NCBI GenBank assembly: GCA_047651235.1
Contig: CP178758.1
Location: 1,260,001-1,292,000, forward strand
Length of the DNA stretch: 32,000 nucleotides
From: Candidatus Electrothrix yaqonensis
GTDB lineage: Bacteria; Desulfobacterota; Desulfobulbia; Desulfobulbales; Desulfobulbaceae
Direction: 5' to 3'
Each line of letters starts with the position of its first letter. Position 1 is the first letter of the stretch. The notes under the pieces were generated by a model. The model made no database searches and was not told the origin of the DNA. It saw nothing but the letters and a program-made list of their open reading frames with translations. The position numbers were made by a program, and so were the translations under genes. This document shows, in pieces, positions 9,983 through 22,246 of this stretch.

Positions 9983-12055
9983 TTATGCTGCTGTTTTTTC
10001 GGATTTGCACTCTACAGAGTCTGCAGATTCCGCAGATGGCAGGGTGATGATAATCCGGGCACCTTGTCCTGCCTCTCCTTCAATATTGACGGTACTCCTC
10101 ATGGAGGTGAGCATCTTTTTCACAATGGTGAGCCCCAGTCCCGTGCCTTTGGCCCGGGTCGTAAAAAATGGTTTAAAGAGCTCCTCTTTGACATGGCCAG
10201 GAAAGCCGCAGCCGTTATCCTGAAAGACGATCTGGACGAACTGGTTATTCTTTCGCGTAAGATACATAGTGATGAGCGGCTTTGCCGCGTCACGGAGCGC
10301 ATTCACCGCGTTGGTGACAAGATTCAGCAGGACCTGATGCAGGGCCCGTTCATCAACCAGAGAGCAGGCTGCATCATTGATCTGCAGTTTCATGGCAATA
10401 CCTTTGCGCTGCAGATCCTTTTCGTGCATTCGTTGAAAATTTGCAAGAAAAGCGGCAAGGTCTGTCAGGGTGAGTACCTGTTCTTCATGCACATTGAAAT
10501 TTTTCAGGGAATAGAGCAGATATTCCATCCGTTTGATTTCCCGCATGGAACGGTCAAGAAACTCCCTGATTCTTTCCGGAGAGAGATGATCCAGCTGCCT
10601 GAGCAGAACACTGATGGCCATTTTCAGCGAGTTCAGGGGATTGCCCAGTTCATGCCGGATGCCTGAAAAAACAAAGCCCACATTGTCCATCAGATTGGCA
10701 GCTTCTGCAATGGATTCAAGGCGTTTCTGGTCGGTCCGGTCATGCTTGATGATACAGAAGCTGTTGACTTTGTTTTTTTCGCCCCGGACCGGAATAATTG
10801 CGACAGACTCATCATAGACAGAACCGTCCTTATGCCGGTTCCGCAGTTCCCCGCGCCATTCTCTGCCTTCAGCCACAGAATCCAGCACCTGCCGGCAGTT
10901 GAACCTGCCCTGTTCGTCCGATTGTATCCGGCCGAATTTCATTCCGATCAGTTCTTCCGGAAGATAACCGGTCACCTTTGTGCTGGCCGGATTGGCGTAA
11001 AAAATGGTTCCTGTTTTATCGGTCATCAGCACACAGTCGGCAAACTCACTGATCGCTGCGGCCAGCCGGACACGCTCCCGCGATTCGAAGGTTCTCCGGA
11101 CAGCGGTGCCGATGATCTCCGAGGACGTTGTCATGGCCTGCACAAGGGGCTCATCCCAAGACCGTTCTTCCTGGCTGCAGTCGAATCCTATGCACCCCCA
11201 CAGCTGCTTGTACACGTAGATCGGCAGAATCAGACAGGTCCGGATGTTGTTCTGTTCAAACTCCTCCCGGAGAAAGACCGGCAGGCTGCGGTCCGGTCCG
11301 ATAATCGGGCCTGCAGTCAGCAGCCGGATGGGAGGACGCCACATGGCCAGCACATCAATACTGGAACTGGTGATGGTATTTCCGTATTTATACCAAGTAT
11401 AATGCCGCTGTTCGGAAGTTCGCGGCTCAAAAGTTTTCAGGTAGACGTGCTCGCTGTCCACATTCTCTCCCAGATACTGCAGCACATCTTTGATTATTTT
11501 TTCCCAGTTTTCTGTCTGCAGAAATGTTTTTGCCACATAATTGACTGCGCTGAGGATATGATCCCGCTGCAGCAGATTGCAGCCGATCTGCTTCTGGACA
11601 GCCAGGGATTCCTGCAGAAGCGCATTGGTTCCCTCCAGATCAAGGGCCTGCTGTTCAAGTTTTTCCCTGGCCGCCTTGATTTCCAGGGTATTGCGCACTC
11701 TGGCGCAGAGCTGCGCCCTGTTCACCGGTTTGCGGAGAAAATCAACAGCTCCTTCCTCAAACCCTCTGTATTCGTTTTCCTCCGCCCCTGTGGCGGTGAG
11801 AAAAATAATCGGTATCTTCCGTGTGCGTTCCTGTGACGTCAGTTTTCTGCACACCTCAAACCCGATGATATCCGGCAGGTTGATGTCCAGCAGGATCAGG
11901 TCCGGAATTTCTTCCTCCGCCAGCCGCAGCCCATCCTTGCCGTTTTCCGCATTCAGAACCCTGTACTTCTCATATTCCAGAATATGACGCAGGATGGAGA
12001 GCACCAGGATATCATCATCAATCAGAAGTATTTTGGCAGATTCAAAGGATCTCAT
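9983..12055 (-). CDS. Hybrid sensor histidine kinase with REC - coiled coil - GAF-like - PAS - HisKA - HATPase_c architecture, 690 aa
   Basis: The N-terminal receiver has KILLIDDD...DLILLDINLPD...KP. The H-box is FSGIRHELGNPLNSL. The ATPase N, G1 and G2 boxes are LLNLVTNAVNA, DNGCGF and GTGLGL. The central region resembles GAF plus PAS (FADCVLMTDKTGTIFYANPASTKVTGY). Confidence 0.9.
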   Translation of the reverse strand: MRSFESAKILLIDDDILVLSILRHILEYEKYRVLNAENGKDGLRLAEEEIPDLILLDINLPDIIGFEVCRKLTSQERTRKIPIIFLTATGAEENEYRGFEEGAVDFLRKPVNRAQLCARVRNTLEIKAAREKLEQQALDLEGTNALLQESLAVQKQIGCNLLQRDHILSAVNYVAKTFLQTENWEKIIKDVLQYLGENVDSEHVYLKTFEPRTSEQRHYTWYKYGNTITSSSIDVLAMWRPPIRLLTAGPIIGPDRSLPVFLREEFEQNNIRTCLILPIYVYKQLWGCIGFDCSQEERSWDEPLVQAMTTSSEIIGTAVRRTFESRERVRLAAAISEFADCVLMTDKTGTIFYANPASTKVTGYLPEELIGMKFGRIQSDEQGRFNCRQVLDSVAEGREWRGELRNRHKDGSVYDESVAIIPVRGEKNKVNSFCIIKHDRTDQKRLESIAEAANLMDNVGFVFSGIRHELGNPLNSLKMAISVLLRQLDHLSPERIREFLDRSMREIKRMEYLLYSLKNFNVHEEQVLTLTDLAAFLANFQRMHEKDLQRKGIAMKLQINDAACSLVDERALHQVLLNLVTNAVNALRDAAKPLITMYLTRKNNQFVQIVFQDNGCGFPGHVKEELFKPFFTTRAKGTGLGLTIVKKMLTSMRSTVNIEGEAGQGARIIITLPSAESADSVECKSEKTAA

Positions 12056-12550: not shown

Positions 12551-13384
12551 ATGAAACAGGTAATTATTGTCGATGACGAGCCGGAACTGCTTCTGAGCAT
12601 ACAGGCCGGACTGGAAAAAAACAACGGTTGTTTTCAGATCATGACAGCGGAAAACGGCCGGGAAGCCCTTGATCTGCTGGAAAACAACGTTGTTGATCTG
12701 GTGGTGACCGACCTGCGGATGCCGGAAATGGACGGTGTGGAACTGCTTGCCGCCATGAGCGAATCCTTTCCCGAAGTTCCCAGCATCGTGATGACAGCCT
12801 TCGGCACCTCCTCTATGGAACGGCTGCTGAAAAAAACAGGAACATTGAATTTTCTTGAAAAACCGCTTGATATTGACAGTCTTGAGCAGGCTGTCACCAA
12901 TGCGCTGGATTTTTATCATAACCGGGAGGGCGGTCTGGAGCTAGATATTTTTTTGCAGCTTGTGGCTATGGAACGAAAAACTGTGCATCTCAAGGTGGTT
13001 GATCCCGACAGGCGGCAGGGCAGCTTTTTTTTCCGTAAGGGCTTTCTGATTGATGCGGAGCAGGATGACCGGATCGGTGATGAAGCGGTGCTGGCAATGC
13101 TGGAATGGAAACATGTGCAATTGAGCATGAAGGAGTTTATTCCTCCTGTTGTTCCGGAAGCTCCCGAAGTTCCGAAAGCCCGTCCGCATACAGAGACCCG
13201 TTCCGAACAGCTGCTCCTGCGTTCCGGTATGCCGTACTGCCGGGAGCGGCAGAAAGCCTGCAATCCGTTATATGATGAAGTCAGGCAGGAGTTTATTCAG
13301 GCAGGAGTTTATGCGTCTGAAAAAAAATATGAGCTGTCAGCCCGGAACAGCAGGACGGCATACAGAATCGAATCTGATCCATGA
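12551..13384 (+). CDS. Response regulator with receiver + DUF4388 (PATAN-like) domains and no Roadblock domain, 277 aa (paralog 1)
   Basis: REC motifs are IVDDEPE, VVTDLRMPEMDG (Asp54) and VMTAF..EKP. A DUF4388-like segment follows: LELDIFLQLVAMERKTVHLKVVDPDRRQGSFFFRKGFLIDAEQDDRIGDEAVLAMLEWKHVQLSM. I chose the start MKQVIIVDD at 12551 by alignment with the two paralogs; the ORF track begins at 12464. Confidence 0.8.
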   Translation: MKQVIIVDDEPELLLSIQAGLEKNNGCFQIMTAENGREALDLLENNVVDLVVTDLRMPEMDGVELLAAMSESFPEVPSIVMTAFGTSSMERLLKKTGTLNFLEKPLDIDSLEQAVTNALDFYHNREGGLELDIFLQLVAMERKTVHLKVVDPDRRQGSFFFRKGFLIDAEQDDRIGDEAVLAMLEWKHVQLSMKEFIPPVVPEAPEVPKARPHTETRSEQLLLRSGMPYCRERQKACNPLYDEVRQEFIQAGVYASEKKYELSARNSRTAYRIESDP

Positions 13385-14568
13385 AACGGCAGGTATTAAT
13401 AGTTGATGATGAACCGGAGCTGCTTCTGAGCATCAGGTCCGGTTTTGAAGACAATGATCGTTTTGAGATCATGACGGCGCATAATGGCCTGGAAGCACTT
13501 GATGTAATGAGAAGAAACTCTGTTGACCTGCTGGTGACCGATCTGCGGATGCCGAAAATGGACGGCGTGGAGTTGCTTGCCGCCATGACGGAATCCTTTC
13601 CCAGGGTACCGAATATCGTGATGACAGCCTTCGGAACCCCTGTGATGGAACGGCAGCTGAAAAAAGCTGGCACATTGGAGATGCTTGAAAAACCGCTGGA
13701 TATTGATGCGCTTGAGCAGGCGATCAACAGAGTACTGGATGCGTATGACGAACAGCACAGCGGGCTTTCCGGAATCTCTCTGGACAACTTTCTCCAGATT
13801 CTTGCTCTGGAGCAGAAGACAGCGACGGTCAAGGTTGTTCATCCGGGCGGGAAAAAGGGCAGCCTGTTTTTTTCTGACGGCAAGTTGATTGATGCGAGGT
13901 GTGATCACAGCCTCGGAGAAGAGGCATTTTTTGAAATGCTGTCCTGGGAACATGTCCGACTGAGTATGGACAAGTTGCCGTCGCCTCCGCCAAAAACCAG
14001 AATTCACGCTGAACTGATGTCGCTTCTGCTGAAATCCGCGCACCGGAAGGATACGCGCCAGGAGGCCAAACCGCTGAATCTGGTCAAGCAGGAGCTGCGT
14101 ACTCAGCACCGTATCCAGCAGAAAAAACAGCAGCAGGGGAAGAAGAACAGACAACACAGAAACTATAACAATCACAACAGGAAAACCGTACCAGGAGGGG
14201 AGAGAAAAATGGCAGGAATCAAAGAAGTGCTGAAAGAAATGGCAGGGGAAATGGACGGAGTGCTTGCAGTGCAGGTGACCGGTATGGATGGTATCACGAT
14301 TGCGCTGCATAATCCCACCGGCACGGATGTGGAGGCATTTTCGGCAAAGTTTGCTATGGTCATGAAACTCGTTGAAAAATCTGTCAGCTCGCTGCAGGGA
14401 ATGGGCAGCTTTGAAGAAAATCTGGTGCAGGCGCAGAACGCCTGGATCCTGACCCGGTTCGTCACGCCGCAGTACTATGTGGGCATTGCGGTCAGCCGGG
14501 ATGGTACCTTGGGTAATGTACGCCTGGTTGCCCAACGTTATATTGACCGCCTGCGCAAACTTTTGTAA
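13381..14568 (+). CDS. Response regulator with receiver + DUF4388 (PATAN-like) + Lys/Gln-rich linker + Roadblock/LC7 (MglB-like) domain, 395 aa (paralog 2)
   Basis: The start overlaps the paralog 1 stop (ATGA at 13381-13384). REC motifs are conserved, including Asp54. DUF4388-like segment: ISLDNFLQILALEQKTATVKVVHPGGKKGSLFFSDGKLIDA...EAFFEMLSWEHVRLSM. The C-terminal 119 aa, MAGIKEVLKEMAGEMDGVLAVQVTGMDGITIALHN...YYVGIAVSRDGTLGNVRL, fit the Roadblock/LC7 pattern. Confidence 0.85.
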   Translation: MKRQVLIVDDEPELLLSIRSGFEDNDRFEIMTAHNGLEALDVMRRNSVDLLVTDLRMPKMDGVELLAAMTESFPRVPNIVMTAFGTPVMERQLKKAGTLEMLEKPLDIDALEQAINRVLDAYDEQHSGLSGISLDNFLQILALEQKTATVKVVHPGGKKGSLFFSDGKLIDARCDHSLGEEAFFEMLSWEHVRLSMDKLPSPPPKTRIHAELMSLLLKSAHRKDTRQEAKPLNLVKQELRTQHRIQQKKQQQGKKNRQHRNYNNHNRKTVPGGERKMAGIKEVLKEMAGEMDGVLAVQVTGMDGITIALHNPTGTDVEAFSAKFAMVMKLVEKSVSSLQGMGSFEENLVQAQNAWILTRFVTPQYYVGIAVSRDGTLGNVRLVAQRYIDRLRKLL

Positions 14569-14600
14569 TTATAAACGGATCAAAACGCAGGAGGATAAAT

Positions 14601-15077
14601 ATGGCTTCAGAAGAGCAGAAAAAGAAAAATCTGATGCGCCTGATGAATCTGATGATCGCAGGTATGGCCAAAGCATTATATGACCTGTTCGGCGACACCG
14701 CCTTTGCCACGATGAGTGAGGTCGGCAGAACAACGCTGGAAATCATGGAACAGGAAATGGGCCTTGAAGTGGAAGGAGAAGATCCGAAAGATGTTCTCAT
14801 GGAAATCGGCCGTATTTTTGCCGATGAGATGGGATTTATAGAATCCTTCAGCACCGAGCAGGAGGGCAATAACCTCTCGCTTATCGTCCATCATTGTCAG
14901 GGCTGGAACCTGACGCAGTCTATTCTGAAGACAGGGATCGAAATTCCGTTCACCTGCCCGATCATGAATGTCTGTCAGGCGGCTCTGATCCGGATGGGGA
15001 AACCGGCACAGAAATCCATTTCGCCTCTTCCGGAAACACATGGCTCCACCATCACTTTTACGCTGATTGAACAGTAG
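14601..15077 (+). CDS. Hypothetical 158-aa protein, possibly a V4R-like (4-vinyl-reductase-type) small-molecule-binding protein
   Basis: Strong SD (AGGAGGataaatATG). The architecture is a helical N-half (AKALYDLFGDTAFATMSEVGRTT...) followed by a Cys-bearing C-half (LIVHHCQGW...FTCPIMNVCQAAL...TITFTLIE). This resembles V4R/COG1719-type proteins as I remember them. The functional call is tentative (about 0.4); the confidence given is for the CDS itself. Confidence 0.65.
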   Translation: MASEEQKKKNLMRLMNLMIAGMAKALYDLFGDTAFATMSEVGRTTLEIMEQEMGLEVEGEDPKDVLMEIGRIFADEMGFIESFSTEQEGNNLSLIVHHCQGWNLTQSILKTGIEIPFTCPIMNVCQAALIRMGKPAQKSISPLPETHGSTITFTLIEQ

Positions 15078-15204
15078 GAACAGCAGGGTGCAGAAAGCGG
15101 AGCAGCCGTGCCCTCGATCTTTCCCGTCGGCGGACGGCTGCCCGGATTTCGGTCCGGTACGTAAATCAGATGGAACGCCAGATGGAATACCATCGGAGTA
15201 ACCT

Positions 15205-16413
15205 ATGAAACAGCAGGTACTGATAGTTGATGATGATCCGGAACTGCTCCTGAGTATCAGCTGCGGTTTTGAACAGAATGAACGCTTCCACCTTCTCAAG
15301 GCAGAAAACGGTCGGGAAGCCCTTGCTGTTCTGGAGACCAACAGGGTGGATCTTGTAGTCACCGACCTGAATATGCCGGTCATGGACGGGGTGGAACTCC
15401 TTTCCGTGATGAGCAATTCGTTTTCGGAAGTCCCGTACGTTGTGATGACAGCGTTCCGGACTTCCGTGATGGAGGAACATCTGAAACAGGCCGGTGCTCT
15501 GAATCTCCTTGAAAAGCCCATTGATATTAATCAGCTTGAAGAGGCGATCAACAAGGCGCTGGATATCCAGGAGGAGCAGAACTGCAGTCTTGCCGGTCTG
15601 CCGCTGAGCAGTTTTCTTCAGCTTGTTGCTATGGAGCAGAAAACTGCGCATCTGAAGATTTTCCATCTGGGCGGACAATGCGGCAGTCTTTTTTTTCATG
15701 ACGGGGACCTCATTGATGCGGAATACGATGATCTGATCGGTGATGAAGCTGTGCTGGAGATGCTGGCATGGGAAAATGTCAGGGTGAGTATAAAAGAGTT
15801 TACCGGGCCTTTTTCCAATTCCAGGATGAAATCCGAGCTCCTGTCCCTTATTTTTACAGCTCTGCAGCGCCAGGACTGGAATGCGGAAGATGCTGATAAT
15901 CCGCTGCAGGTGGTAAAAGAGGAATTTGACCGGATGAAAAAAACAGCATCCGAGAAGCTTATATGCAGGCGGACAAATACAACAAATACAGCTAGGCCAA
16001 AACCGGACAGGAAGACAGAGACAAAAAAAGATAGAAACAAGGCAGGGACAAAAAAGGAAAAAATCAACGATGTACTCAAAAAGATGGCAGCTGAACTGGA
16101 CGGATTGCTTGCGGTGCAGGTAACGGGTCTGGACGGGGTAACCCTGGCCCTGCATAATCCGGCCGGTGCGGACATGGAGGTCTTTTCCGAAAAGTTCTCT
16201 ACTATAATGCAGCTTATCGGAAAATCCGTCGGTTCTCTGCGGGAGATGGGGGAATTTGAAGAAAGTCTGATTCAGGCCCGGAACGCCTGGATACTGACCA
16301 GATTTATCACGCCGCAGTACTATGTGGGCATTGCGGTCAACCGGGAAAGCACTCCCGGTAATGTGCGCCTAGTCGCCCGGAGTTATCTTGACCGGCTGCG
16401 TCGCTCGCTGTAA
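15205..16413 (+). CDS. Response regulator with receiver + DUF4388 (PATAN-like) + Lys-rich linker + Roadblock/LC7 domain, 402 aa (paralog 3)
   Basis: Same architecture as 13381..14568, with IVDDDPE, VVTDLNMPVMDG, VMTAF and EKP. DUF4388-like segment: LPLSSFLQLVAMEQKTAHLKIFHLGGQCGSLFFHDGDLIDA. Roadblock-like C-terminus: MAAELDGLLAVQVTGLDGVTLALHN...YYVGIAVNRESTPGNVRL. SD GGAG lies 8 nt upstream. Confidence 0.85.
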   Translation: MKQQVLIVDDDPELLLSISCGFEQNERFHLLKAENGREALAVLETNRVDLVVTDLNMPVMDGVELLSVMSNSFSEVPYVVMTAFRTSVMEEHLKQAGALNLLEKPIDINQLEEAINKALDIQEEQNCSLAGLPLSSFLQLVAMEQKTAHLKIFHLGGQCGSLFFHDGDLIDAEYDDLIGDEAVLEMLAWENVRVSIKEFTGPFSNSRMKSELLSLIFTALQRQDWNAEDADNPLQVVKEEFDRMKKTASEKLICRRTNTTNTARPKPDRKTETKKDRNKAGTKKEKINDVLKKMAAELDGLLAVQVTGLDGVTLALHNPAGADMEVFSEKFSTIMQLIGKSVGSLREMGEFEESLIQARNAWILTRFITPQYYVGIAVNRESTPGNVRLVARSYLDRLRRSL

Positions 16414-16455
16414 CTGTACAATTCTTCGTAGACGATCAGCCGGAAATGTTTGTTC

Positions 16456-17748
16456 ATGGTCACCTTCCGTCCCGCCTTTCTCACCCGTCCGGACAGCCTG
16501 ACTGTACCTGAGGCCCGCTATTTTCAGGATCTTCTCTATCGGACCGTAAAAATCGGCACGGAGCTGGAATTCGCCCTGCCCAAAGGCGTACTGCGTGAAG
16601 ACCTGCAGCCCCGTGTTGAACAGGCCCTGCAGCCTTCCAGGGATATGAACCGGCTGGGGGCCTTGGGGGTCTATGATGTGATCAAGGAGCACTGCGGAGT
16701 CGAAGTGCTGGTGATCGGCCGGCATCCTCATTGGGATGCCCTCCTGCAGCAGTATCAAGGGATTATTCGCGTCCTGCTGGCTGAAAAAGTCAGAATGCGC
16801 CCGACCTGCGGCCTGCATTTTCATATTCTCGGCACAGGACTTGCAGAAGAGATTCCGGAAATCATCTTGGCAAACCTGTGGAACATGGCCCGCATTTTTG
16901 CTCCGGGACTCAAATTTATCACATCAGGCGGGAAAAGCAAGCAGGGGTTGTGCCGCCGGCGCCAGCATAATGCGCATCAGGAATTCATGCGTCTGTCGCC
17001 GGAAGAGCATTCCATGCAGGCAATTCAGGCTCTGCTGAAAAAAAGCATGGATGTTCCCGAACACCAGAATTTTTTTAATATAGCACATGTCTGCTTTAAT
17101 GCGGCTGGCAAGATACGGAATTTCCACCTTGAGTTCCGTTTTCCGGATGGCGACCTCTGCCCGGTCTCGATTACGGCCAAAACGTTTTTATTTTTGATCA
17201 TGCTGCTCAAAGCGGTGGAAATCTCTAAATTCGGGTTGCTTAGGGCTGGCGACACCGGTTCTCTGATGAAAAGAAACAGAGAACTCATGGACATGATAAG
17301 TAATAATGACGGCAAGTTGGCCACTAGCGACACCGGTGCTATTGATGACCTGCTTCTGCGGGAATATCAGGAAAATGCCCAAGCCCTGCTAATTTTTCTT
17401 AAGTCCGTTCTTCTGCTCCTCGACAGTCCTGCCGAACTGGTGCTGCAGGAGCTGGCAATGCAGCCGGTTTCCCTGCGCAGAAGCCGGGGACAGAGCTGGC
17501 AGCAGATTGAGAAGAACCTGCTCGCTCATATCAGCCCCCGGCCTGTTCCGGACGAGACAGACTATGAGCTGATAAAAATCATTGAACTCGGCCTGCTGGT
17601 GCATATCGACAGTAAAAAAAGCTGGCTTGCCGGAGCTGCTGATATGCTCGGTCTTGCGCCGGAAGAGGTGTACGCCCGGGTGCAGTGCTTTCATGACCGC
17701 TCGCCTGTCTGGCAACAGGAACTGGGCAGCATTGTCTTTCTGCGTTAG
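16456..17748 (+). CDS. Putative amidoligase (glutamine-synthetase/GCS2-like fold, 'Amidoligase_2'-type) with an uncharacterised C-terminal region of about 170 aa, about 430 aa
   Basis: Three motifs match my recollection of the amidoligase family: an N-terminal G-x-E-x-E strand (KIGTELEFALP), CGLHFHIL, and NFHLEFRFPDGDL (the E-F-R motif). The ORF track start at 16450 is TTG and the first ATG is at 16456. No clear SD; the gene lies 42 nt after the preceding gene. Confidence 0.65.
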   Translation: MVTFRPAFLTRPDSLTVPEARYFQDLLYRTVKIGTELEFALPKGVLREDLQPRVEQALQPSRDMNRLGALGVYDVIKEHCGVEVLVIGRHPHWDALLQQYQGIIRVLLAEKVRMRPTCGLHFHILGTGLAEEIPEIILANLWNMARIFAPGLKFITSGGKSKQGLCRRRQHNAHQEFMRLSPEEHSMQAIQALLKKSMDVPEHQNFFNIAHVCFNAAGKIRNFHLEFRFPDGDLCPVSITAKTFLFLIMLLKAVEISKFGLLRAGDTGSLMKRNRELMDMISNNDGKLATSDTGAIDDLLLREYQENAQALLIFLKSVLLLLDSPAELVLQELAMQPVSLRRSRGQSWQQIEKNLLAHISPRPVPDETDYELIKIIELGLLVHIDSKKSWLAGAADMLGLAPEEVYARVQCFHDRSPVWQQELGSIVFLR

Positions 17749-17816
17749 CCAAGCACGATATTTGCATACAAAGCAGGGATTGCGGAATTCTACAGACAAG
17801 AAAACAAGGAATCATC

Positions 17817-18596
17817 ATGTGCGGCATCAGCGGCGTACTGATCAGCCCCGGACGCAGCACAGCACAGCTTTTCCGCATCAGCGAACTGTTTATGGCCAAT
17901 CTTATCGCCAATGAACAGAGGGGAAAGGAGGCCACAGGCGTTGCCCTGCTCAACCGGGATTCCAGCTGGCTGCTGGACAAGGCGCCGCAGACGGCAAGCC
18001 GGTATATCCGTTCAGCAGGATACCGCCGGGTCATGCAATCCCTGTCTGCGGAGACAACCGTGCTGCTGGGCCACACCAGAGAGCCGACCAAGGGAACGCC
18101 GCAGATCAACGCGAACAACCATCCGATCGTCCGGGGCAGCATTATCGGGGTGCATAACGGAACAATTACCAATGATGACGAGATTTTTGCCCAGCAAACC
18201 AACAGCGCTGACCGGATCGGTTCGGTGGACAGCGAAGCTGTTTTTGCCCTGCTTGACAGCATTGCGGATGCAATGGCGCTGCCCTCCTACGGCAGAAAAC
18301 TCTATGAGCAGTCCGGCAAGATCATCGGCTCATATGCGGTTCTTTATGTAAATCCTACTTTGCCGTACTGTGTTTTTCTGTTAAAGTATAAGAATCCTGT
18401 TTCAGTCCACTGGGATAATGAACTGGGCGCCCTGTTTTTTTCCTCGCGTTATCTGTTCCTGCGCAAGACCTTCGGACGTGCCGCAATCACGGACGGGCTG
18501 CCGGGAAGAACCGGTTTTATGTTCGACGCTGCCCGGCTTCAGCAGAATGGAGCTCTGCCGGCGCGCCGGTTCCGCCTGTTCAGCAATGAATCGTAA
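17817..18596 (+). CDS. Stand-alone class II (Ntn-type) glutamine amidotransferase, YafJ-like, 259 aa
   Basis: N-terminal MCGI supplies the nucleophilic Cys2 after Met removal. Other motifs are GHTREPTKG...NNHPI, VHNGTITN and VDSEAVFAL, the canonical class-II GATase set. SD aAGGAatcatcATG. Confidence 0.85.
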   Translation: MCGISGVLISPGRSTAQLFRISELFMANLIANEQRGKEATGVALLNRDSSWLLDKAPQTASRYIRSAGYRRVMQSLSAETTVLLGHTREPTKGTPQINANNHPIVRGSIIGVHNGTITNDDEIFAQQTNSADRIGSVDSEAVFALLDSIADAMALPSYGRKLYEQSGKIIGSYAVLYVNPTLPYCVFLLKYKNPVSVHWDNELGALFFSSRYLFLRKTFGRAAITDGLPGRTGFMFDAARLQQNGALPARRFRLFSNES

Positions 18597-18672
18597 TCAG
18601 GGATAGTTCACGGTTAATCGCGCCAAAATGATCCTGCAGTCCTTTAACAGGAATTTTCTGCTATAATGAAAG

Positions 18673-19308
18673 ATGAAAGAAACAATACCGGCAAAAACTG
18701 ACAGGCCTGAACTGTCTGTGATACCATATGAGAACGCAATGAATATCCGACAGAAATTATCCCGACTTGCGGAAATCGACGGCTTTGCAGGAGCAGCTCT
18801 GTTCACCCCGGACGGACGCCTGCTTGTGAAATGTGAACCTGTTGATATCAATATCGAACTTCTCGGCTCTCTTGCCAATAATGTCCTGCGTACTGCTGAA
18901 AAGGTCTCGCGCGATATGAGCTGCGGCCGCAGCCACTTCACCTTCATGCATACGGAAAAGGTACTGATTCTACTCCGTTGCCTTAATGAGGGCAAAAATC
19001 CTCTGCGGGCTGAACCGGGAAGATGCCATATCCACCTTATTCTTTTTATTGATAATCCGGAAAGCCTCGGTATCGCCAAAATCGAGATCAGCAAGGTTAT
19101 TGAATCGCTGGCTGCAAATTTCAGAGCACCGGCAAAAGGCAGCAGGCAGCAGAAAAAAAAAGCCCCTGCGTCGCAGAAGACGGCAGACCGGACAGAGAAC
19201 CGGGCGGAAAAACTCCCGGAACAACAGGGGAAGAAGCCTCTGAATGATGTGGCATGCCTCCTGAATAACGAACAGGTAAACAGAGCGTTTGATAGTTTAC
19301 TTGCCTGA
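18673..19308 (+). CDS. Roadblock/LC7 (MglB-like) domain protein with a basic Lys/Gln-rich C-terminal tail, 211 aa (possible alternative start at M23, 18739)
   Basis: LSRLAEIDGFAGAALFTPDGRLLVKCEPVDINIELLGSLANNVLRTAEKVSRDM...VLILLRC fits the Roadblock pattern (x-G-phi-x-G-A-x-phi-x-x-DG). The tail reads APAKGSRQQKKKAPASQKTADRTENRAEKLPEQQGKK. Confidence 0.7.
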   Translation: MKETIPAKTDRPELSVIPYENAMNIRQKLSRLAEIDGFAGAALFTPDGRLLVKCEPVDINIELLGSLANNVLRTAEKVSRDMSCGRSHFTFMHTEKVLILLRCLNEGKNPLRAEPGRCHIHLILFIDNPESLGIAKIEISKVIESLAANFRAPAKGSRQQKKKAPASQKTADRTENRAEKLPEQQGKKPLNDVACLLNNEQVNRAFDSLLA

Positions 19309-19343
19309 TCGTTACTGTCTGACTTTTTCTCAAAGAGGATCAT

Positions 19344-19709
19344 ATGGCCAAAAAAAACTGCTGGGAAGTCAAAAAATGTGGTCGGCAGCCGGGTGGTCAT
19401 AAGGTCAGAGAACAAGGTATCTGCCCTGCTTCCACGATTATAGCGGTTGACGGCATCAATCACGGCAAAAACGGCGGGCGGGCCTGCTGGGCTCTGACCG
19501 GCACCATGTCCGGTCCGGCGGAAAAAGTCCAGGGCACGTTTGCCCGCCTCCTGCCCGGCAGCTGCTATGACTGCAAATTTTATGAACTGGTAATGATGGA
19601 AGAAGGGGAGAATTTTGAAGGAACTGTCCGGATCGTCCAGAAACTGAGAGAGGTTATTGATGCCGTTACAACCACTGCTCCATCAAAACCCCCATCCCGG
19701 TCAGGTTGA
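19344..19709 (+). CDS. Cys-rich 'two-CW' type small protein, 121 aa
   Basis: SD AAGAGGAtcatATG. MAKKNCWEVKKCGRQPGG...GICPA...GKNGGRACWALTGT...CYDCKFY carries two C-W dipeptides plus a CxxC, six Cys in total. It matches my recollection of proteins that NCBI annotates as two-CW domain-containing. It is the last gene of the plus-strand cluster. Confidence 0.65.
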   Translation: MAKKNCWEVKKCGRQPGGHKVREQGICPASTIIAVDGINHGKNGGRACWALTGTMSGPAEKVQGTFARLLPGSCYDCKFYELVMMEEGENFEGTVRIVQKLREVIDAVTTTAPSKPPSRSG

Positions 19710-20696: not shown

Positions 20697-21044
20697 TTAG
20701 TAGCCATAGCCATAGCCTCTGTATTCATACCGATCATCATCGGAGTAACGCCCGCTATTAGCGCCGCGATATTCGTAGCGGCTACCGCGCTCGTATCCGG
20801 TGCCGCGATACGCATACCGATCATCATCGGAGTAACGCCCTCCATAAGCGTTTCCGCGATACGCAGAACGATTATCGGAGTAACGTCCTCCATAAGCACC
20901 GCGATATTCGTAGCGGCTGCCGCGGTCGTAGTATCCACTGCCGCGCTCGTATCTGCTGCCGTATCCGCTGCCGTGGGCAGTTGCGAAGAGTCCCAGTACG
21001 AGGAATGAACTGATCAGGGTGAGGGCTGTTGTTGTCTTTTTCAT
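20697..21044 (-). CDS. Secreted low-complexity Arg/Gly/Tyr/Ser/Asp repeat protein, 115 aa
   Basis: GGAGG SD. The signal peptide is MKKTTTALTLISSFLVLGLFATAHG. The mature part is almost entirely R, Y, G, S and D (…GGRYSDNRSAYRGNAYGGRYSDDDRYAYRG…RYSDDDRYEYRGYGYGY). A 28-nt perfect DNA repeat occurs at 20726-20753 and 20813-20840. Confidence 0.7.
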   Translation of the reverse strand: MKKTTTALTLISSFLVLGLFATAHGSGYGSRYERGSGYYDRGSRYEYRGAYGGRYSDNRSAYRGNAYGGRYSDDDRYAYRGTGYERGSRYEYRGANSGRYSDDDRYEYRGYGYGY

Positions 21045-21439: not shown

Positions 21440-22246
21440 ATGAAGAAGATACTGAGCGCAGCAGCACTGTCCACCCTGCTTTTTAGCGCAGGACAAGGTA
21501 TTGCAGGCAATATGAGAATTATGCCGCCTTCCCTGGGGCAGGACTGTCCGGAGGGATGCCTGGATCAACTGGACGAACTGAATTCCAGTCAGGCCCGGCA
21601 GGATGAACAGCTTGAGGCATTGGAGCAAAGTCAGGTCCGCCAGGATGAGGCTATTCAGGCCAACGCAGATGATATTAAAAGCAATCTGCAGGAAATTGAA
21701 AACCTGAAAAACCTTCAGCATGAAGAAGTGTACTCCTGGTATGTCAGGGCAGCCGGTCAGGTAAATTGGATGGGATCCATGGATCTGGATAAGGCCGCCT
21801 ATGGTTCCCAGGCAGATACTGATACCGGATACGGCTTCGGTTTTGCCCTCGGGCGTCGGTTCGGTAATCTCCGCATTGAAGGAGAACTGGCCGGACAGGC
21901 AGCCGACATTAAAGGCGAAAATTTATCCGATATCACGATCAGCACTGCCATGCTCAACGGCTTCTACGGCATTCCGATATACGGCCCGTTTTCCATCTAC
22001 GGCAGAGCCGGAGCAGGAACCGCCAAGATTGAAGTGGCAATGAACGATGTCGATGAAAGTGAAGTGACCTTCGCCTATAAAGCCGGAGCCGGCATCACGA
22101 TGGATATGGATTATAATATGGCTGTTGATCTGGGATATGAATATCTGCGCACCGGTGACGTTGAACTCGGTGCAGAGCATGAACTGCTCAGGATCGACGA
22201 TATGAAGAGCAGCGGAGTCAACGCCTCTGTCCGCTATGCCTTCTGA
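21440..22246 (+). CDS. Outer-membrane beta-barrel protein (OmpA-like/porin-family barrel) with an N-terminal coiled-coil extension, 268 aa
   Basis: Signal peptide MKKILSAAALSTLLFSAGQGIAG, then a CPEGC pair and a Q/E-rich heptad-like segment of about 70 aa. Alternating beta-strand sequence follows (GYGFGFALGRRF, LRIEGELAG, AYKAGAGITMDM, and others), ending in the OMP-type C-terminus VRYAF. SD AAGGAAGAG. Confidence 0.8.
   Translation: MKKILSAAALSTLLFSAGQGIAGNMRIMPPSLGQDCPEGCLDQLDELNSSQARQDEQLEALEQSQVRQDEAIQANADDIKSNLQEIENLKNLQHEEVYSWYVRAAGQVNWMGSMDLDKAAYGSQADTDTGYGFGFALGRRFGNLRIEGELAGQAADIKGENLSDITISTAMLNGFYGIPIYGPFSIYGRAGAGTAKIEVAMNDVDESEVTFAYKAGAGITMDMDYNMAVDLGYEYLRTGDVELGAEHELLRIDDMKSSGVNASVRYAF

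Follow-up and report, generated by a model that had tools for sequence, protein, structure and literature searches.

What would an ATP-dependent ligase and a glutamine amidotransferase be doing side by side in the middle of a run of signalling genes? The locus considered here lies in a stretch of Candidatus Electrothrix DNA of 32,000 nucleotides (hereafter the window), for which the original prediction had described an 'amidoligase' of the glutamine synthetase (GS) fold paired with a stand-alone class-II amidotransferase in a non-metabolic context. Both open reading frames lie where it had placed them (16456-17748 and 17817-18596, plus strand). They belong to a same-strand cluster with a divergently transcribed sensor kinase gene in front of it:

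9983..12055, minus strand: hybrid sensor kinase REC-GAF-PAS-HisKA-HATPase, 690 aa, divergently transcribed (Pfam)
12551..13384, plus strand: REC + PATAN protein, 277 aa, first gene of the same-strand cluster (Response_reg 1e-25, DUF4388 6e-6)
13381..14568, plus strand: REC + PATAN + Roadblock-like protein, 395 aa, paralogue of the product of 15205-16413 (Pfam, jackhmmer)
14601..15077, plus strand: P158, predicted V4R/Bet3(TRAPPC3)-fold protein, 158 aa (AF2, Foldseek, synteny)
15205..16413, plus strand: receiver + PATAN (DUF4388) + C-terminal Roadblock-like protein, 402 aa (Response_reg 9e-25, DUF4388 1e-9)
16456..17748, plus strand: AML, predicted GS-fold ATP-dependent carboxylate-amine ligase (open reading frame, invariant motifs, AF2, Foldseek)
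17817..18596, plus strand: GAT, predicted stand-alone class-II (Ntn) glutamine amidotransferase with Cys2 as nucleophile (Pfam GATase_6, invariant residues)
18673..19308, plus strand: Roadblock/LC7-like protein with a Lys/Gln-rich tail, 211 aa (Robl_LC7 20.7 bits, under the 23-bit cut-off)
19344..19709, plus strand: two-CW domain protein, 121 aa, last cluster gene in Electrothrix (NCBIfam NF045718, 92 bits, cut-off 35)

The ligase, the amidotransferase and their motifs

AML is 430 aa long when read from its ATG (an in-frame TTG upstream, at 16450, would add two residues) and is 100% identical to the annotated protein P0001 of Candidatus Electrothrix sp. YB6. It is laid out as a catalytic domain (approximately residues 1-260) followed by a family-specific helical C-terminal domain (approximately 261-430). 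The three motifs that had first suggested an amidoligase are present (IGTELEF, residues 33-39; CGLHFH, 118-123; HLEFRFPDG, 224-232), and among 25 aligned homologues, with 48-75% identity to the window protein, the key residues E36, E38, H121, H123, H224, E226 and R228 are invariant, as are R167-R169 and E202-N205. The family comprises 515 clusters at 90% identity, and a profile search of 1.84 billion representatives recovered 261 AML-family matches with E <= 1e-3; the conservation of both motifs and family is far beyond chance.

A structural check had been proposed alongside these motifs, and an AF2 model of AML (mean pLDDT 87.5) searched with Foldseek returned a GS fold with the metal- and ATP-binding Glu and His residues, not a non-GS fold. 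All 22 PDB matches at E <= 1e-3 are GS-fold enzymes (YbdK, GS, Dop, PafA, GmaS), led by YbdK 1r8g (TM 0.52 on target), GS 5dm3, Dop 9cku/7oyh, PafA 4bjr and GmaS at E values of 1e-5 to 1e-3, and the PafA/Dop matches include 9cku, 7oyh, 4bjr and 4b0r. Among viral structures, the top matches are phage 'Amidoligase enzyme' proteins. The motifs E-x-E, H-x-H and E-x-R follow one another in AML in the order common to E. coli GlnA (EPEF, GMHCH, EVRFPD) and YbdK (IELEM, QHVHV, VEVRVMD), and hhalign weakly aligns FHxEFRFPD of AML with RIEVRFPD of GS, placing E-x-R-F-P-D on GS residues 357-363.

An AML profile found no match among PDB sequences, and AML did not match Pfam Amidoligase_2 (PF12224; gathering score 22 bits) even at E <= 10, while its distant relative P0371 came just under that score (20.6 bits, E 4.5e-4); relatedness to Amidoligase_2 is, therefore, of superfamily level only. 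Assignment to the 'amidoligase branch' of the GS fold holds at the level of fold and motifs and not at that of HMM membership, because there is no PF12224 match. The extra C-terminal region of about 170 aa, described as having no recognisable motif, indeed matches nothing in Pfam or NCBIfam, and neither does AML as a whole; the region is all-helical in the AF2 model and is kept end to end even in a viral-contig relative at 26% identity. Model and motifs together identify AML as a predicted ligase with the glutamine synthetase fold and the complete metal and phosphate motif set of the GS/YbdK type.

GAT, which is 100% identical to annotated protein P0221 of Candidatus Electrothrix sp. YB6, scores 39.7 bits against Pfam GATase_6 (cut-off 27 bits). 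The full class-II motif set ascribed to it is present (MCGISGV, HTREPTKG, NNHP, HNGTITN, DSE), and all 21 homologues compared keep R35/G36, H86/R88/T91, N100-P103, H113-G115 and D138-E140. The N-terminal M1-C2-G3 is near-invariant, with C2 in 20 of the 21; the exception looks N-terminally truncated. R88, N114-G115 and D138 presumably correspond to Arg73, Asn98-Gly99 and Asp123 of GlmS (glutamine binding, oxyanion hole). Judged by these residues, GAT keeps an intact Cys nucleophile and a complete predicted pocket in which glutamine would be held by its free alpha-amino and alpha-carboxyl groups. As anticipated, it has no fused synthase domain, being 259 aa long in a family of 250-300 aa throughout.

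Familiar identities were tried for GAT and rejected. EgtC (TIGR03442) is matched at 23.1 bits (E 4e-5) against an equivalog cut-off of 218.65 bits, and no egt genes lie in the window. With GlmS and PurF, the GAT domain alone matches, without the isomerase or PRTase domain; the scores are 51.8 bits for GlmS (cut-off 381) and 30.1 bits for PurF (cut-off 350).

Pairing, phage relatives and the signalling operon

The comparative set consists of 81 AML loci from at least 11 phylum-level lineages, across which the order V4R/Bet3-fold protein, AML, GAT is conserved. Flanking sequence was long enough in 71 loci: in 62 of them GAT immediately follows AML, and the other 9 have no downstream GAT. An orphan AML is present in Coleofasciculus. 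Pairwise divergence of AML is correlated with that of GAT (r = 0.85), compared with 0.36 for AML and P158 from the same operons. A viral contig (L083) encodes a full-length AML relative (E 2e-46) together with two GAT relatives (E ~1e-35; 31-33% identity to the window GAT), and amidoligase-then-GAT order is also found in the annotated Arthrobacter phage Salgado (gp98/gp99) and Alcaligenes phage vB_Af_QDWS535 (gp41/gp40). Synteny, correlated divergence and the shared phage gene order support AML and GAT as a real functional pair, as had been proposed, and synteny and covariation leave AML as the sole plausible candidate for a synthase partner of GAT in trans.

The combination as such is already known, having stood since 2009 as an uncharacterised phage and plasmid cassette of amidoligase and class-II GATase. 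The original prediction attributed it to Iyer et al. (2009), and PMC10580990 (2023) likewise credits those authors with the pairing, reports their proposal of cell-wall modification for the phage pair and calls the functions unexplored. In the literature examined, in which that paper makes the latest statement, no amidoligase + GAT pair has a defined substrate.

The most constant neighbour of AML is P158, which lies upstream in 73 of 76 loci. Its AF2 model (pLDDT 90.9) has Bet3/TRAPPC3 (mouse, human, Naegleria, Thorarchaeota), the sensor domains of PoxR/MopR and H-NOX as its top Foldseek matches (E 1e-5 to 1e-3), and P158 is accordingly modelled as a two-layer alpha/beta protein of the V4R/Bet3 fold. 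Pfam V4R is not matched, and the source database assigns the protein to PF27323 'RdxA_C'. K24, C99 and PFTCP116-120 are invariant; C99 and C119 are the only invariant Cys residues, and P158 lacks the four-ligand Zn site of PoxR and Thor-TRAPPC3. The homology of V4R and Bet3 is already established (PMC2253512, PMC10933270), and in PoxR and TRAPPC3 the fold binds small ligands (PMC10933270).

Roadblock proteins are found near AML in 61 of 63 loci, PATAN proteins in 58 and an MglA-like GTPase in 33. The GTPase-bearing loci are mostly from Chloroflexota, and one of these GTPases passes the Pfam Ras cut-off (24.2 against 21.6 bits); a six-frame translation of the 32-kb Electrothrix window gave no GTPase match. 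The Roadblock copies of the window score 16.7-20.7 bits against Pfam Robl_LC7, all under the 23-bit cut-off (17.9 bits for the C-terminal 122 aa of the 402-aa protein). Their orthologues in two loci (L001, L002) carry precomputed Robl_LC7 matches, and jackhmmer ties them to stand-alone Roadblock proteins of ~123 aa. The 402-aa gene is inserted between P158 and AML in the window genome, the 277-aa REC + PATAN gene has equivalents in other Electrothrix loci, and the 211-aa Roadblock/LC7-like gene recurs at its position in Electrothrix loci L003-L007. In L003-L005 and L007 the two-CW gene lies downstream; in L042 it precedes AML. Equivalents of the hybrid sensor kinase (684-696 aa) lie upstream on the opposite strand in L005-L007; the kinase is the probable input for the REC domains of the cluster, and its association with the AML module is lineage-specific.

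The 'non-metabolic context' of the original prediction was thus correct in that the neighbours are signalling proteins, and has to be revised in that their presence is not accidental. Going by synteny and predicted domains, they belong to a conserved module of several genes, with a V4R/Bet3-fold protein, Roadblock and REC-PATAN proteins and, in some loci, an MglA-like GTPase. One might still suppose that an ordinary metabolic or mobile pair, phage-derived or from a defence system, had landed by chance beside signalling genes, since paired relatives of both enzymes occur in phages, and GAT matches both the phage GATase family phrog_14519 (5e-19) and individual phage GATs (25-33% identity). We consider such an origin highly implausible: these signalling neighbours accompany the pair in at least 11 phylum-level lineages, AML has no match in PHROG or, by tblastn, in 50,697 phage genomes, and neither AML nor GAT matches a PADLOC defence model at E <= 0.1. 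Furthermore, the GC content of the cluster (0.50-0.54) is like that of the remaining window, the cluster contains no phage or transposase genes, and protein identities of 43-75% exclude a single, recently transferred island.

Candidate chemistries and their meaning

Our tentative reading is that AML and GAT are a co-inherited cassette that forms the catalytic arm of the signalling operon and carries out glutamine- and ATP-dependent amidation. GAT would hydrolyse glutamine by way of Cys2 and pass the ammonia to AML; AML, with metals on E36/E38/H121/E226 and phosphate on R228, would spend ATP on activating a carboxylate as an acyl-phosphate and would then capture the ammonia, converting the carboxylate to an amide. 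The logic would be that of MurT/GatD, rebuilt on a GS fold. The best substrate candidates would come from the V4R/Bet3-fold partner, either as a small ligand bound to it or as a carboxylate of the protein itself, and bicarbonate would be a further candidate because of carbonic anhydrase (CA) neighbours in 12 loci. This modification would determine the state of the Roadblock/GTPase/REC switch. If MglA/MglB and PATAN regulators are a guide, polarity or surface motility is probably what the switch controls.

Several points were counted against amidation. We know of no GS-fold enzyme that takes ammonia from a GATase partner, and to our knowledge the stand-alone class-II GATases of known function (e.g. 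EgtC) are gamma-glutamyl hydrolases rather than ammonia donors. Also counted were the loci without a downstream GAT and the Coleofasciculus orphan, the lack of an invariant acceptor residue in the Roadblock and PATAN domains (no invariant Lys, Glu or Cys was found there), and the lack of a GTPase in the Electrothrix window. The Lys-rich linkers of the neighbouring Roadblock proteins, which had been offered as a candidate acceptor, proved to be a peculiarity of Electrothrix; the corresponding linkers of other lineages are short and acidic.

The main rival, which we find somewhat doubtful, makes writer and eraser of the two enzymes. AML would couple glutamate, through its gamma-carboxyl, to an amine. 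The acceptor could be a small amine that the V4R/Bet3-fold protein senses, or an amino group on a protein, for which the invariant K24 of P158 is a possible example. GAT, as an Ntn hydrolase, would strip the gamma-glutamyl group, and the outcome would be a mark that can be undone or a signal molecule with a short lifetime. A signalling operon suits a writer and an eraser, and the loci without GAT would remain sensible. As far as we know, all characterised GS-fold ligases matching AML (GS, YbdK, GmaS, PafA) activate the gamma-carboxylate of glutamate, and GS-fold ligases are paired with GATase-fold hydrolases in EgtA/EgtC, GmaS/N-methylglutamate synthase and PuuA/PuuD. The invariant Arg88 and Asp138 of GAT would bind a free gamma-glutamyl head group no less well than glutamine, and the weak EgtC match of GAT (TIGR03442, 4e-5) points the same way, although its score is far under the family cut-off (23 against 219 bits). 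Further points speak against this reading: the Roadblock and PATAN proteins showed no conserved acceptor Lys, and the Lys-rich linkers are not conserved; the rate covariation of AML and GAT and their fixed adjacency in phages suit a physical complex better than opposing, independent enzymes; and the CA neighbours would go unexplained.

These neighbours belong to two unrelated CA classes, which adjoin AML on the same strand in 12 loci (~15%) from at least five lineages. Seven loci have a Cam-type gamma-CA (NCBIfam NF040597, 316-335 bits) and five a beta-CA (Pfam Pro_CA, 6e-43), and the slots differ, being either the P158-AML gap or the AML-GAT gap. Because two unrelated classes were recruited independently, a real link to CO2 or bicarbonate can be argued for, and the CA neighbours hint at bicarbonate chemistry. 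Perhaps AML activates bicarbonate in a carboxyphosphate-like manner and joins it with GAT ammonia or an amine to give a carbamate or a carbamoyl/ureido product, comparable to PurK or to the first half of the carbamoyl-phosphate synthetase reaction; or, the module may sense C/N status through CO2 and glutamine. We regard either version as quite improbable, in that CA genes occur in ~15% of loci only, with none in the Electrothrix window, and a carbamate would be unstable without a second step for which the module encodes no candidate. No GS-fold enzyme known to us activates bicarbonate, the known examples being ATP-grasp enzymes.

Amidation remains our preferred, if tentative, reading, and the place of the pair in the operon points to a chemical step in bacterial switch signalling. 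What is new, as far as predicted domains and synteny indicate, is an amidoligase/GAT pair wired into a Roadblock/Bet3-like/small-GTPase-type cluster in at least 11 bacterial lineages. This would add an enzymatic component to Roadblock/MglB-type switches, hitherto understood as pure protein-protein GTPase regulators. The cellular clade also supplies defined, conserved partners (V4R/Bet3-fold protein, Roadblock, receiver domains and small GTPase), and the substrate search is, therefore, narrowed and testable by co-expression and mass spectrometry. Moreover, a Bet3-fold protein, a Roadblock protein and a Ras-like GTPase in one bacterial operon bear on the prokaryotic ancestry of TRAPP and Ragulator. 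Hosts of the module are rich in filamentous gliders, including cable bacteria, Anaerolineae and filamentous cyanobacteria, and the module may, therefore, bear on direction control in filaments.

A bolder and, in our estimation, unlikely extension is that many, mostly filamentous or gliding, bacteria have a Ragulator/TRAPP-like platform in which Roadblock dimers are combined with a Bet3-fold protein and with either a small GTPase or receivers, and whose state is set by a dedicated enzyme pair through a covalent mark or a new small signal. For instance, perhaps the pair writes, and possibly erases, an amide, gamma-glutamyl or carbamoyl mark. Alternatively, a new small signal may be made from glutamine, possibly with bicarbonate, coupling N/C status to polarity or motility. 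If true, either option would be signalling chemistry new to prokaryotic small-GTPase pathways.

Comparison with known systems

The module resembles MglA/MglB, the conservon (CvnA-D) and TRAPP/Ragulator: its Roadblock proteins occur together with a Bet3/V4R-fold protein and, in 33 of 63 loci, a small Ras-like GTPase. The occurrence of PATAN proteins near MglB homologues was noted by Makarova (2006), as cited in PMC4316618. In the literature examined, no amidoligase or GATase is reported for MglA/MglB, the actinobacterial conservon, or eukaryotic and Asgard TRAPP and Ragulator. A complete MglA/MglB-type GTPase switch was considered for the Electrothrix module itself and rejected, as the 32-kb window contains no cognate small Ras-like GTPase.

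Phage and plasmid pairs of Amidoligase_2 (PF12224) and class-II GATase (PF13522) share with AML/GAT the GS-like fold, the three-motif core and the gene order, and, going by PMC10580990, are equally uncharacterised in function. They differ in that AML misses the PF12224 model and carries the extra helical C-terminal domain of ~170 aa, and in setting: the window pair is chromosomal, found in cellular lineages and housed in a Roadblock/V4R/PATAN operon, whereas the phage pairs lie among DNA-metabolism, ATP-grasp or COOH-NH2 ligase genes. With YbdK/GCS2 and GS, AML has fold and motif order in common, and its E-x-R-F-P-D is identical to the GS motif. Unlike them, it has a GATase partner; it has no significant sequence similarity to them (hhalign probabilities 0.3-2.6%), lacks the N-terminal beta-grasp domain of GS and ends in a different C-terminal domain.

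MurT/GatD, in which a peptide glutamate is amidated with a separate GATase subunit (PMC3267633), shares only the operational logic of an ATP-dependent ligase with a separate glutaminase. The two systems are not homologous, MurT having a Mur-ligase fold and GatD being a class-I (triad) GATase in a cell-wall context. Closer in build are EgtA/EgtC and GmaS/N-methylglutamate synthase, each combining in one operon a GS-fold ligase and a class-II GATase-fold processor of the gamma-glutamyl product. These are, however, metabolic pathways, whereas AML/GAT sits in a signalling operon with no EgtB/EgtD or mgs/mgd genes nearby.

AML was also considered as a pupylation enzyme and rejected: no window ORF of >= 25 aa ends in the Pup-like G-[GA]-[QE], there are no proteasome/Mpa genes, and AML has no sequence similarity to PafA/Dop by the profile search of PDB sequences. 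Deamidation in pupylation is the task of a second GS-fold enzyme, where the window system has an Ntn GATase instead. Like AML, PafA and Dop have the GS fold, and they act on protein-bound glutamate or glutamine, by ligation and deamidation, showing that this fold can serve protein modification.

Conserved signalling context

AML, a 430-aa ligase, and GAT, a stand-alone amidotransferase, are encoded within a run of eight closely packed plus-strand genes spanning 12551-19709, and a hybrid sensor kinase gene (9983-12055) lies divergent to this cluster. The original prediction had the coordinates, the lengths and all quoted motifs of AML and GAT correct.

Genes of the plus-strand cluster (REC, receiver domain; PATAN, DUF4388; Roadblock, Robl_LC7/MglB-like)
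12551-13384, plus strand: gene 1, REC-PATAN protein
13381-14568, plus strand: gene 2, REC-PATAN-Roadblock-like protein
14601-15077, plus strand: gene 3, P158, 158-aa V4R/Bet3-fold protein
15205-16413, plus strand: gene 4, second REC-PATAN-Roadblock-like protein
16456-17748, plus strand: gene 5, AML, 430-aa ligase
17817-18596, plus strand: gene 6, GAT, 259-aa amidotransferase
18673-19308, plus strand: gene 7, Roadblock-like protein
19344-19709, plus strand: gene 8, two-CW domain protein

To place this arrangement in context, 80 loci with AML relatives, taken from one-genome-per-species contigs, were surveyed together with two found by exact look-up (one duplicating locus L023), and their neighbours were annotated by iterative searches seeded with the window proteins. 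The loci come from Thermodesulfobacteriota, Chloroflexota (the majority), Cyanobacteria, Acidobacteriota, Calditrichota, Bacteroidota, a Clostridia-labelled MAG, WOR-3, KSB1, Coatesbacteria and Gammaproteobacteria, these labels being the record titles as written for metagenome-assembled genomes.

Neighbours of AML in loci with enough flank
P158 upstream of AML: 73 of 76
Roadblock-type protein within 6 kb: 61 of 63
PATAN domain within 6 kb: 58 of 63
MglA-like small GTPase: 33 of 63 (about 34 of the retrieved loci)

Because this synteny recurs across loci, a chance neighbourhood of AML/GAT and signalling genes can be ruled out, and the conserved signalling context is the main new point of our analysis. 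The original prediction had described the neighbours as signalling genes; Roadblock and REC-PATAN proteins are indeed present and prophage genes are not, and the description can now be refined to a context conserved across many lineages. PATAN proteins adjoining MglB homologues have been noted before (Makarova et al., 2006, as cited in PMC4316618), and in the literature searched we found no paper tying Roadblock, MglB, PATAN, DUF4388 or V4R to an amidoligase or amidotransferase.

The MglA-like GTPase carries the P-loop GPALSGKTT and an NKRD motif, and the one copy tested scored 24.2 bits against Pfam Ras, above the cut-off. It is about 195 aa long and is encoded upstream of P158-AML-GAT, within a group of several stand-alone Roadblock genes (for example, L044:5292-5897). 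Its carriers are mostly Chloroflexota, plus loci L017, L071 and L075. Translated in all six frames, the 32-kb Electrothrix window gave no GTPase match, and the Electrothrix module appears either to operate with receiver domains alone or to use a GTPase encoded elsewhere. Judged by analogy to the MglA/MglB and PATAN regulators, the output of the module is probably polarity or surface motility. As sampled from the record titles of L003-L082, the carriers are rich in filamentous, often gliding lineages, including cable bacteria, Anaerolineae, Caldilineae, Ardenticatenia, Caldithrix, Leptolyngbya and Coleofasciculus.

Several further features of the window deserve mention. The three REC-PATAN paralogues (12551-13384, 13381-14568 and 15205-16413) lie in tandem, the first two sharing 4 bases; among the retrieved loci, a third copy between P158 and AML recurs only in L009, and in other Electrothrix loci P158 is immediately 5' of AML with no such copy between. 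The two-CW protein is small and Cys-rich (NF045718, 92 bits) and is the last gene of the cluster in Electrothrix; it lies downstream in L003, L004, L005 and L007 and upstream of AML in L042, a distant deltaproteobacterial MAG. Beyond the cluster, a 115-aa ORF (20697-21044, minus strand) has Gly/Tyr/Arg-rich repeats (GSGYGSRYERGSGYYDRGSRYEYRG...) after an N-terminus that resembles a signal peptide, and adjoins a predicted 268-aa protein (21440-22246). A promoter and terminator scan gave counts close to shuffled expectation. A defence island or prophage was ruled out, as such genes are absent and GC is uniform.

The ligase and the amidotransferase

AML belongs to a well-delimited family of 515 clusters at 90% identity, and a profile search of 1.84 billion proteins returned 261 representatives with E <= 1e-3, 118 of them with E <= 1e-30. 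It had no match in Pfam and NCBIfam scans, even at E <= 10, in a profile search against PDB sequences or in PHROGs, and tblastn of AML and of P0355, its viral-contig relative, against 50,697 phage genomes was likewise negative. Among 25 members 48-75% identical to the window protein, E36, E38, H121, H123, H224, E226, R228, the R167-R168-R169 cluster and H203-Q204-N205 are invariant, and E202 nearly so.

The AlphaFold2 model built from this 25-member alignment (mean pLDDT 87.5, pTM 0.81) bears out the glutamine-synthetase (GS) fold that the original prediction had proposed for checking by AlphaFold and Foldseek: every significant PDB match of the model is a GS-fold enzyme, namely YbdK/GCS2, glutamine synthetases, gamma-glutamylmethylamide synthetase and the pupylation enzymes Dop and PafA, and the putative metal- and ATP-binding Glu and His residues are invariant. 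The motif order is that of both E. coli GlnA (EPEF, GMHCH, EVRFPD) and E. coli YbdK (IELEM, QHVHV, VEVRVMD). Alignment of the family profile by hhalign was not significant for either YbdK (0.3% probability) or GlnA (2.6%); the non-significant GlnA alignment sets FHxEFRFPD of AML against RIEVRFPD of GS, an E-x-R-F-P-D motif in which, in GS, E357 is a metal ligand and R359 binds phosphate. Judged by the model matches, the invariant residues and the motif order, AML has both the fold and the catalytic machinery expected of an ATP-dependent carboxylate-amine ligase, and it looks catalytically competent.

Assignment to the amidoligase branch stands only in part. The three motifs are present, and matches of the model in a viral structure library are mostly phage proteins named 'amidoligase enzyme', but AML is not a member of Pfam Amidoligase_2 by the HMM test; one distant relative within the family scores 20.6 bits, just under the cut-off of 22. 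The C-terminal region of about 170 residues, described earlier as free of recognisable motifs, indeed has no Pfam or NCBIfam match, and is modelled here as a helical domain that forms a family hallmark, aligning end to end even with the 26%-identical viral-contig relative. A subgroup of the family (P0362-P0377 and similar proteins) is 520-600 aa long; P0363 has a Cys-rich, zinc-ribbon-like segment inserted directly after the first E-x-E strand, and P0377 an unrelated N-terminal extension of about 170 aa.

GAT scores above the Pfam GATase_6 threshold and resembles GlmS and PurF in their glutaminase domains only. The full class-II motif set attributed to it is present: in 21 homologues (39-74% identical to the window protein), the N-terminal Met-Cys-Gly, R35-G36, N-N-H-P, H-N-G and D-S-E are invariant or nearly so, and within H-T-R-x-P-T-K-G, H86, R88, T91, K92 and G93 are kept, with T87 and P90 nearly invariant. 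By comparison with GlmS, these residues presumably include the nucleophile, the oxyanion hole, and the Arg and Asp that grip glutamine by its free carboxyl and amino groups. Since such GlmS-like catalytic and binding residues are conserved, GAT should act on glutamine or a gamma-glutamyl compound.

A co-inherited pair and its candidate chemistry

Of 71 loci with sufficient flanking sequence, 62 have GAT immediately 3' of AML in the same orientation, and pairwise identities of the two proteins are correlated across 61 loci (r = 0.85; 0.36 for AML against P158 in the same operons). AML and GAT are thus inherited, and diverge, together. The pairing extends to viruses: Arthrobacter phage Salgado encodes an amidoligase (gp98) and then a GAT (gp99), Alcaligenes phage vB_Af_QDWS535 encodes an amidoligase and then a Gn_AT_II protein, a pair bordered by genes for a COOH-NH2 ligase and an ATP-grasp protein, and in L083, a 146-kb contig called viral on its IMG/VR classification, one full-length relative of AML (E 2e-46) and two relatives of GAT (E about 1e-35) lie amid RuvB and endonuclease V genes.

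Some loci are arranged otherwise. L052 (an Anaerolineae MAG) has two AML+GAT pairs head to head, with neither P158 nor Roadblock genes nearby, an inverted duplication that may be an assembly artefact or real. In L007 (Candidatus Electrothrix gigas), the stretch from AML to the Roadblock gene downstream holds no GAT ORF, and L056:1961-3253 (Coleofasciculus sp. LEGE 07092) is an orphan AML amid unrelated genes for ClpP, a nitrite/sulfite reductase and a NUDIX regulator. No informative alternative partner was seen among the neighbours of the orphans L056 and L040.

We infer that AML and GAT act on a substrate belonging to the signalling module. As a candidate mechanism we tentatively favour amidation of a carboxylate at the expense of glutamine and ATP, in which ammonia released by GAT would attack an acyl-phosphate formed by AML, following the logic of MurT/GatD. 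The preference is based on the tight covariation of AML and GAT, their constant side-by-side placement in phages, and the cell-wall modification that Iyer et al. (2009) proposed for the phage pair, according to PMC10580990. That source adds that the functions of the pair 'remain to be explored', echoing the earlier statement that the pairing described by Iyer and colleagues has no defined substrate. Somewhat less probable is a gamma-glutamyl write/erase cycle, with AML acting like GS, GmaS or PafA and GAT like EgtC; this would fit the known chemistry of all characterised GS-fold ligases, and ligase/hydrolase operons are already known.

A bicarbonate-linked variant of the AML/GAT chemistry is less probable still and is suggested by gene order. 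In 12 loci, representing at least five lineages, a carbonic anhydrase of one of two unrelated classes is encoded directly next to AML on the same strand, either in the P158-AML interval or in the AML-GAT interval. These neighbours suggest that the chemistry of the pair is linked to CO2 or bicarbonate; the Electrothrix window is without a carbonic anhydrase.

Carbonic anhydrase genes beside AML
Gamma class, Cam-type (NF040597, 316-335 bits): L047:7223-7846, L037, L062, L046, L033, L043:1743-2363, L069
Beta class (Pro_CA, 6e-43): L060:9318-9908, L066 (two copies), L082:7092-7943, L028, L031:5372-5998

As for the acceptor, the Lys-rich Roadblock linkers named in the original prediction were dropped, as they are limited to Electrothrix. 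Nor do the Roadblock and PATAN domains offer a conserved acceptor, since no Lys, Glu or Cys in them is invariant, and the window has no gene for a Pup-like tag. P158, or a ligand bound by it, is the best candidate, because P158 is the most constant neighbour and has invariant R13, K24, C99 and C119. Its model (pLDDT 90.9) matches H-NOX, Bet3/TRAPPC3 (the Thorarchaeota version among them) and the V4R domains with which PoxR and MopR bind phenol; PMC10933270 and PMC2253512 tie the V4R/Bet3 fold to ligand binding and GTPase platforms. In the source database, P158 (14601-15077) and its homologues fall in PF27323 'RdxA_C', a very recent Pfam entry. The origin of that name was not found in the literature searched, and a P158-related protein may already have been named RdxA.

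Relation to known systems

The AML/GAT pair is related to the phage amidoligase and GAT-II cassette and would work alike, and it differs from that cassette in the extra AML domain and the fixed signalling context, and from the phage amidoligase class in failing Amidoligase_2 membership. By their defining tests, AML and GAT are not EgtC, GlmS or PafA/Dop, and neither matched a defence-system model in PADLOC. Uncharacterised amidoligases with a GAT partner are a kind already known, and what is new is the conserved association with Roadblock proteins, a Bet3-fold protein and GTPases. Such constant partners make the orphan enzyme pair tractable to study, and they suggest that bacterial signalling of the small-GTPase type has a chemical layer so far unrecognised.
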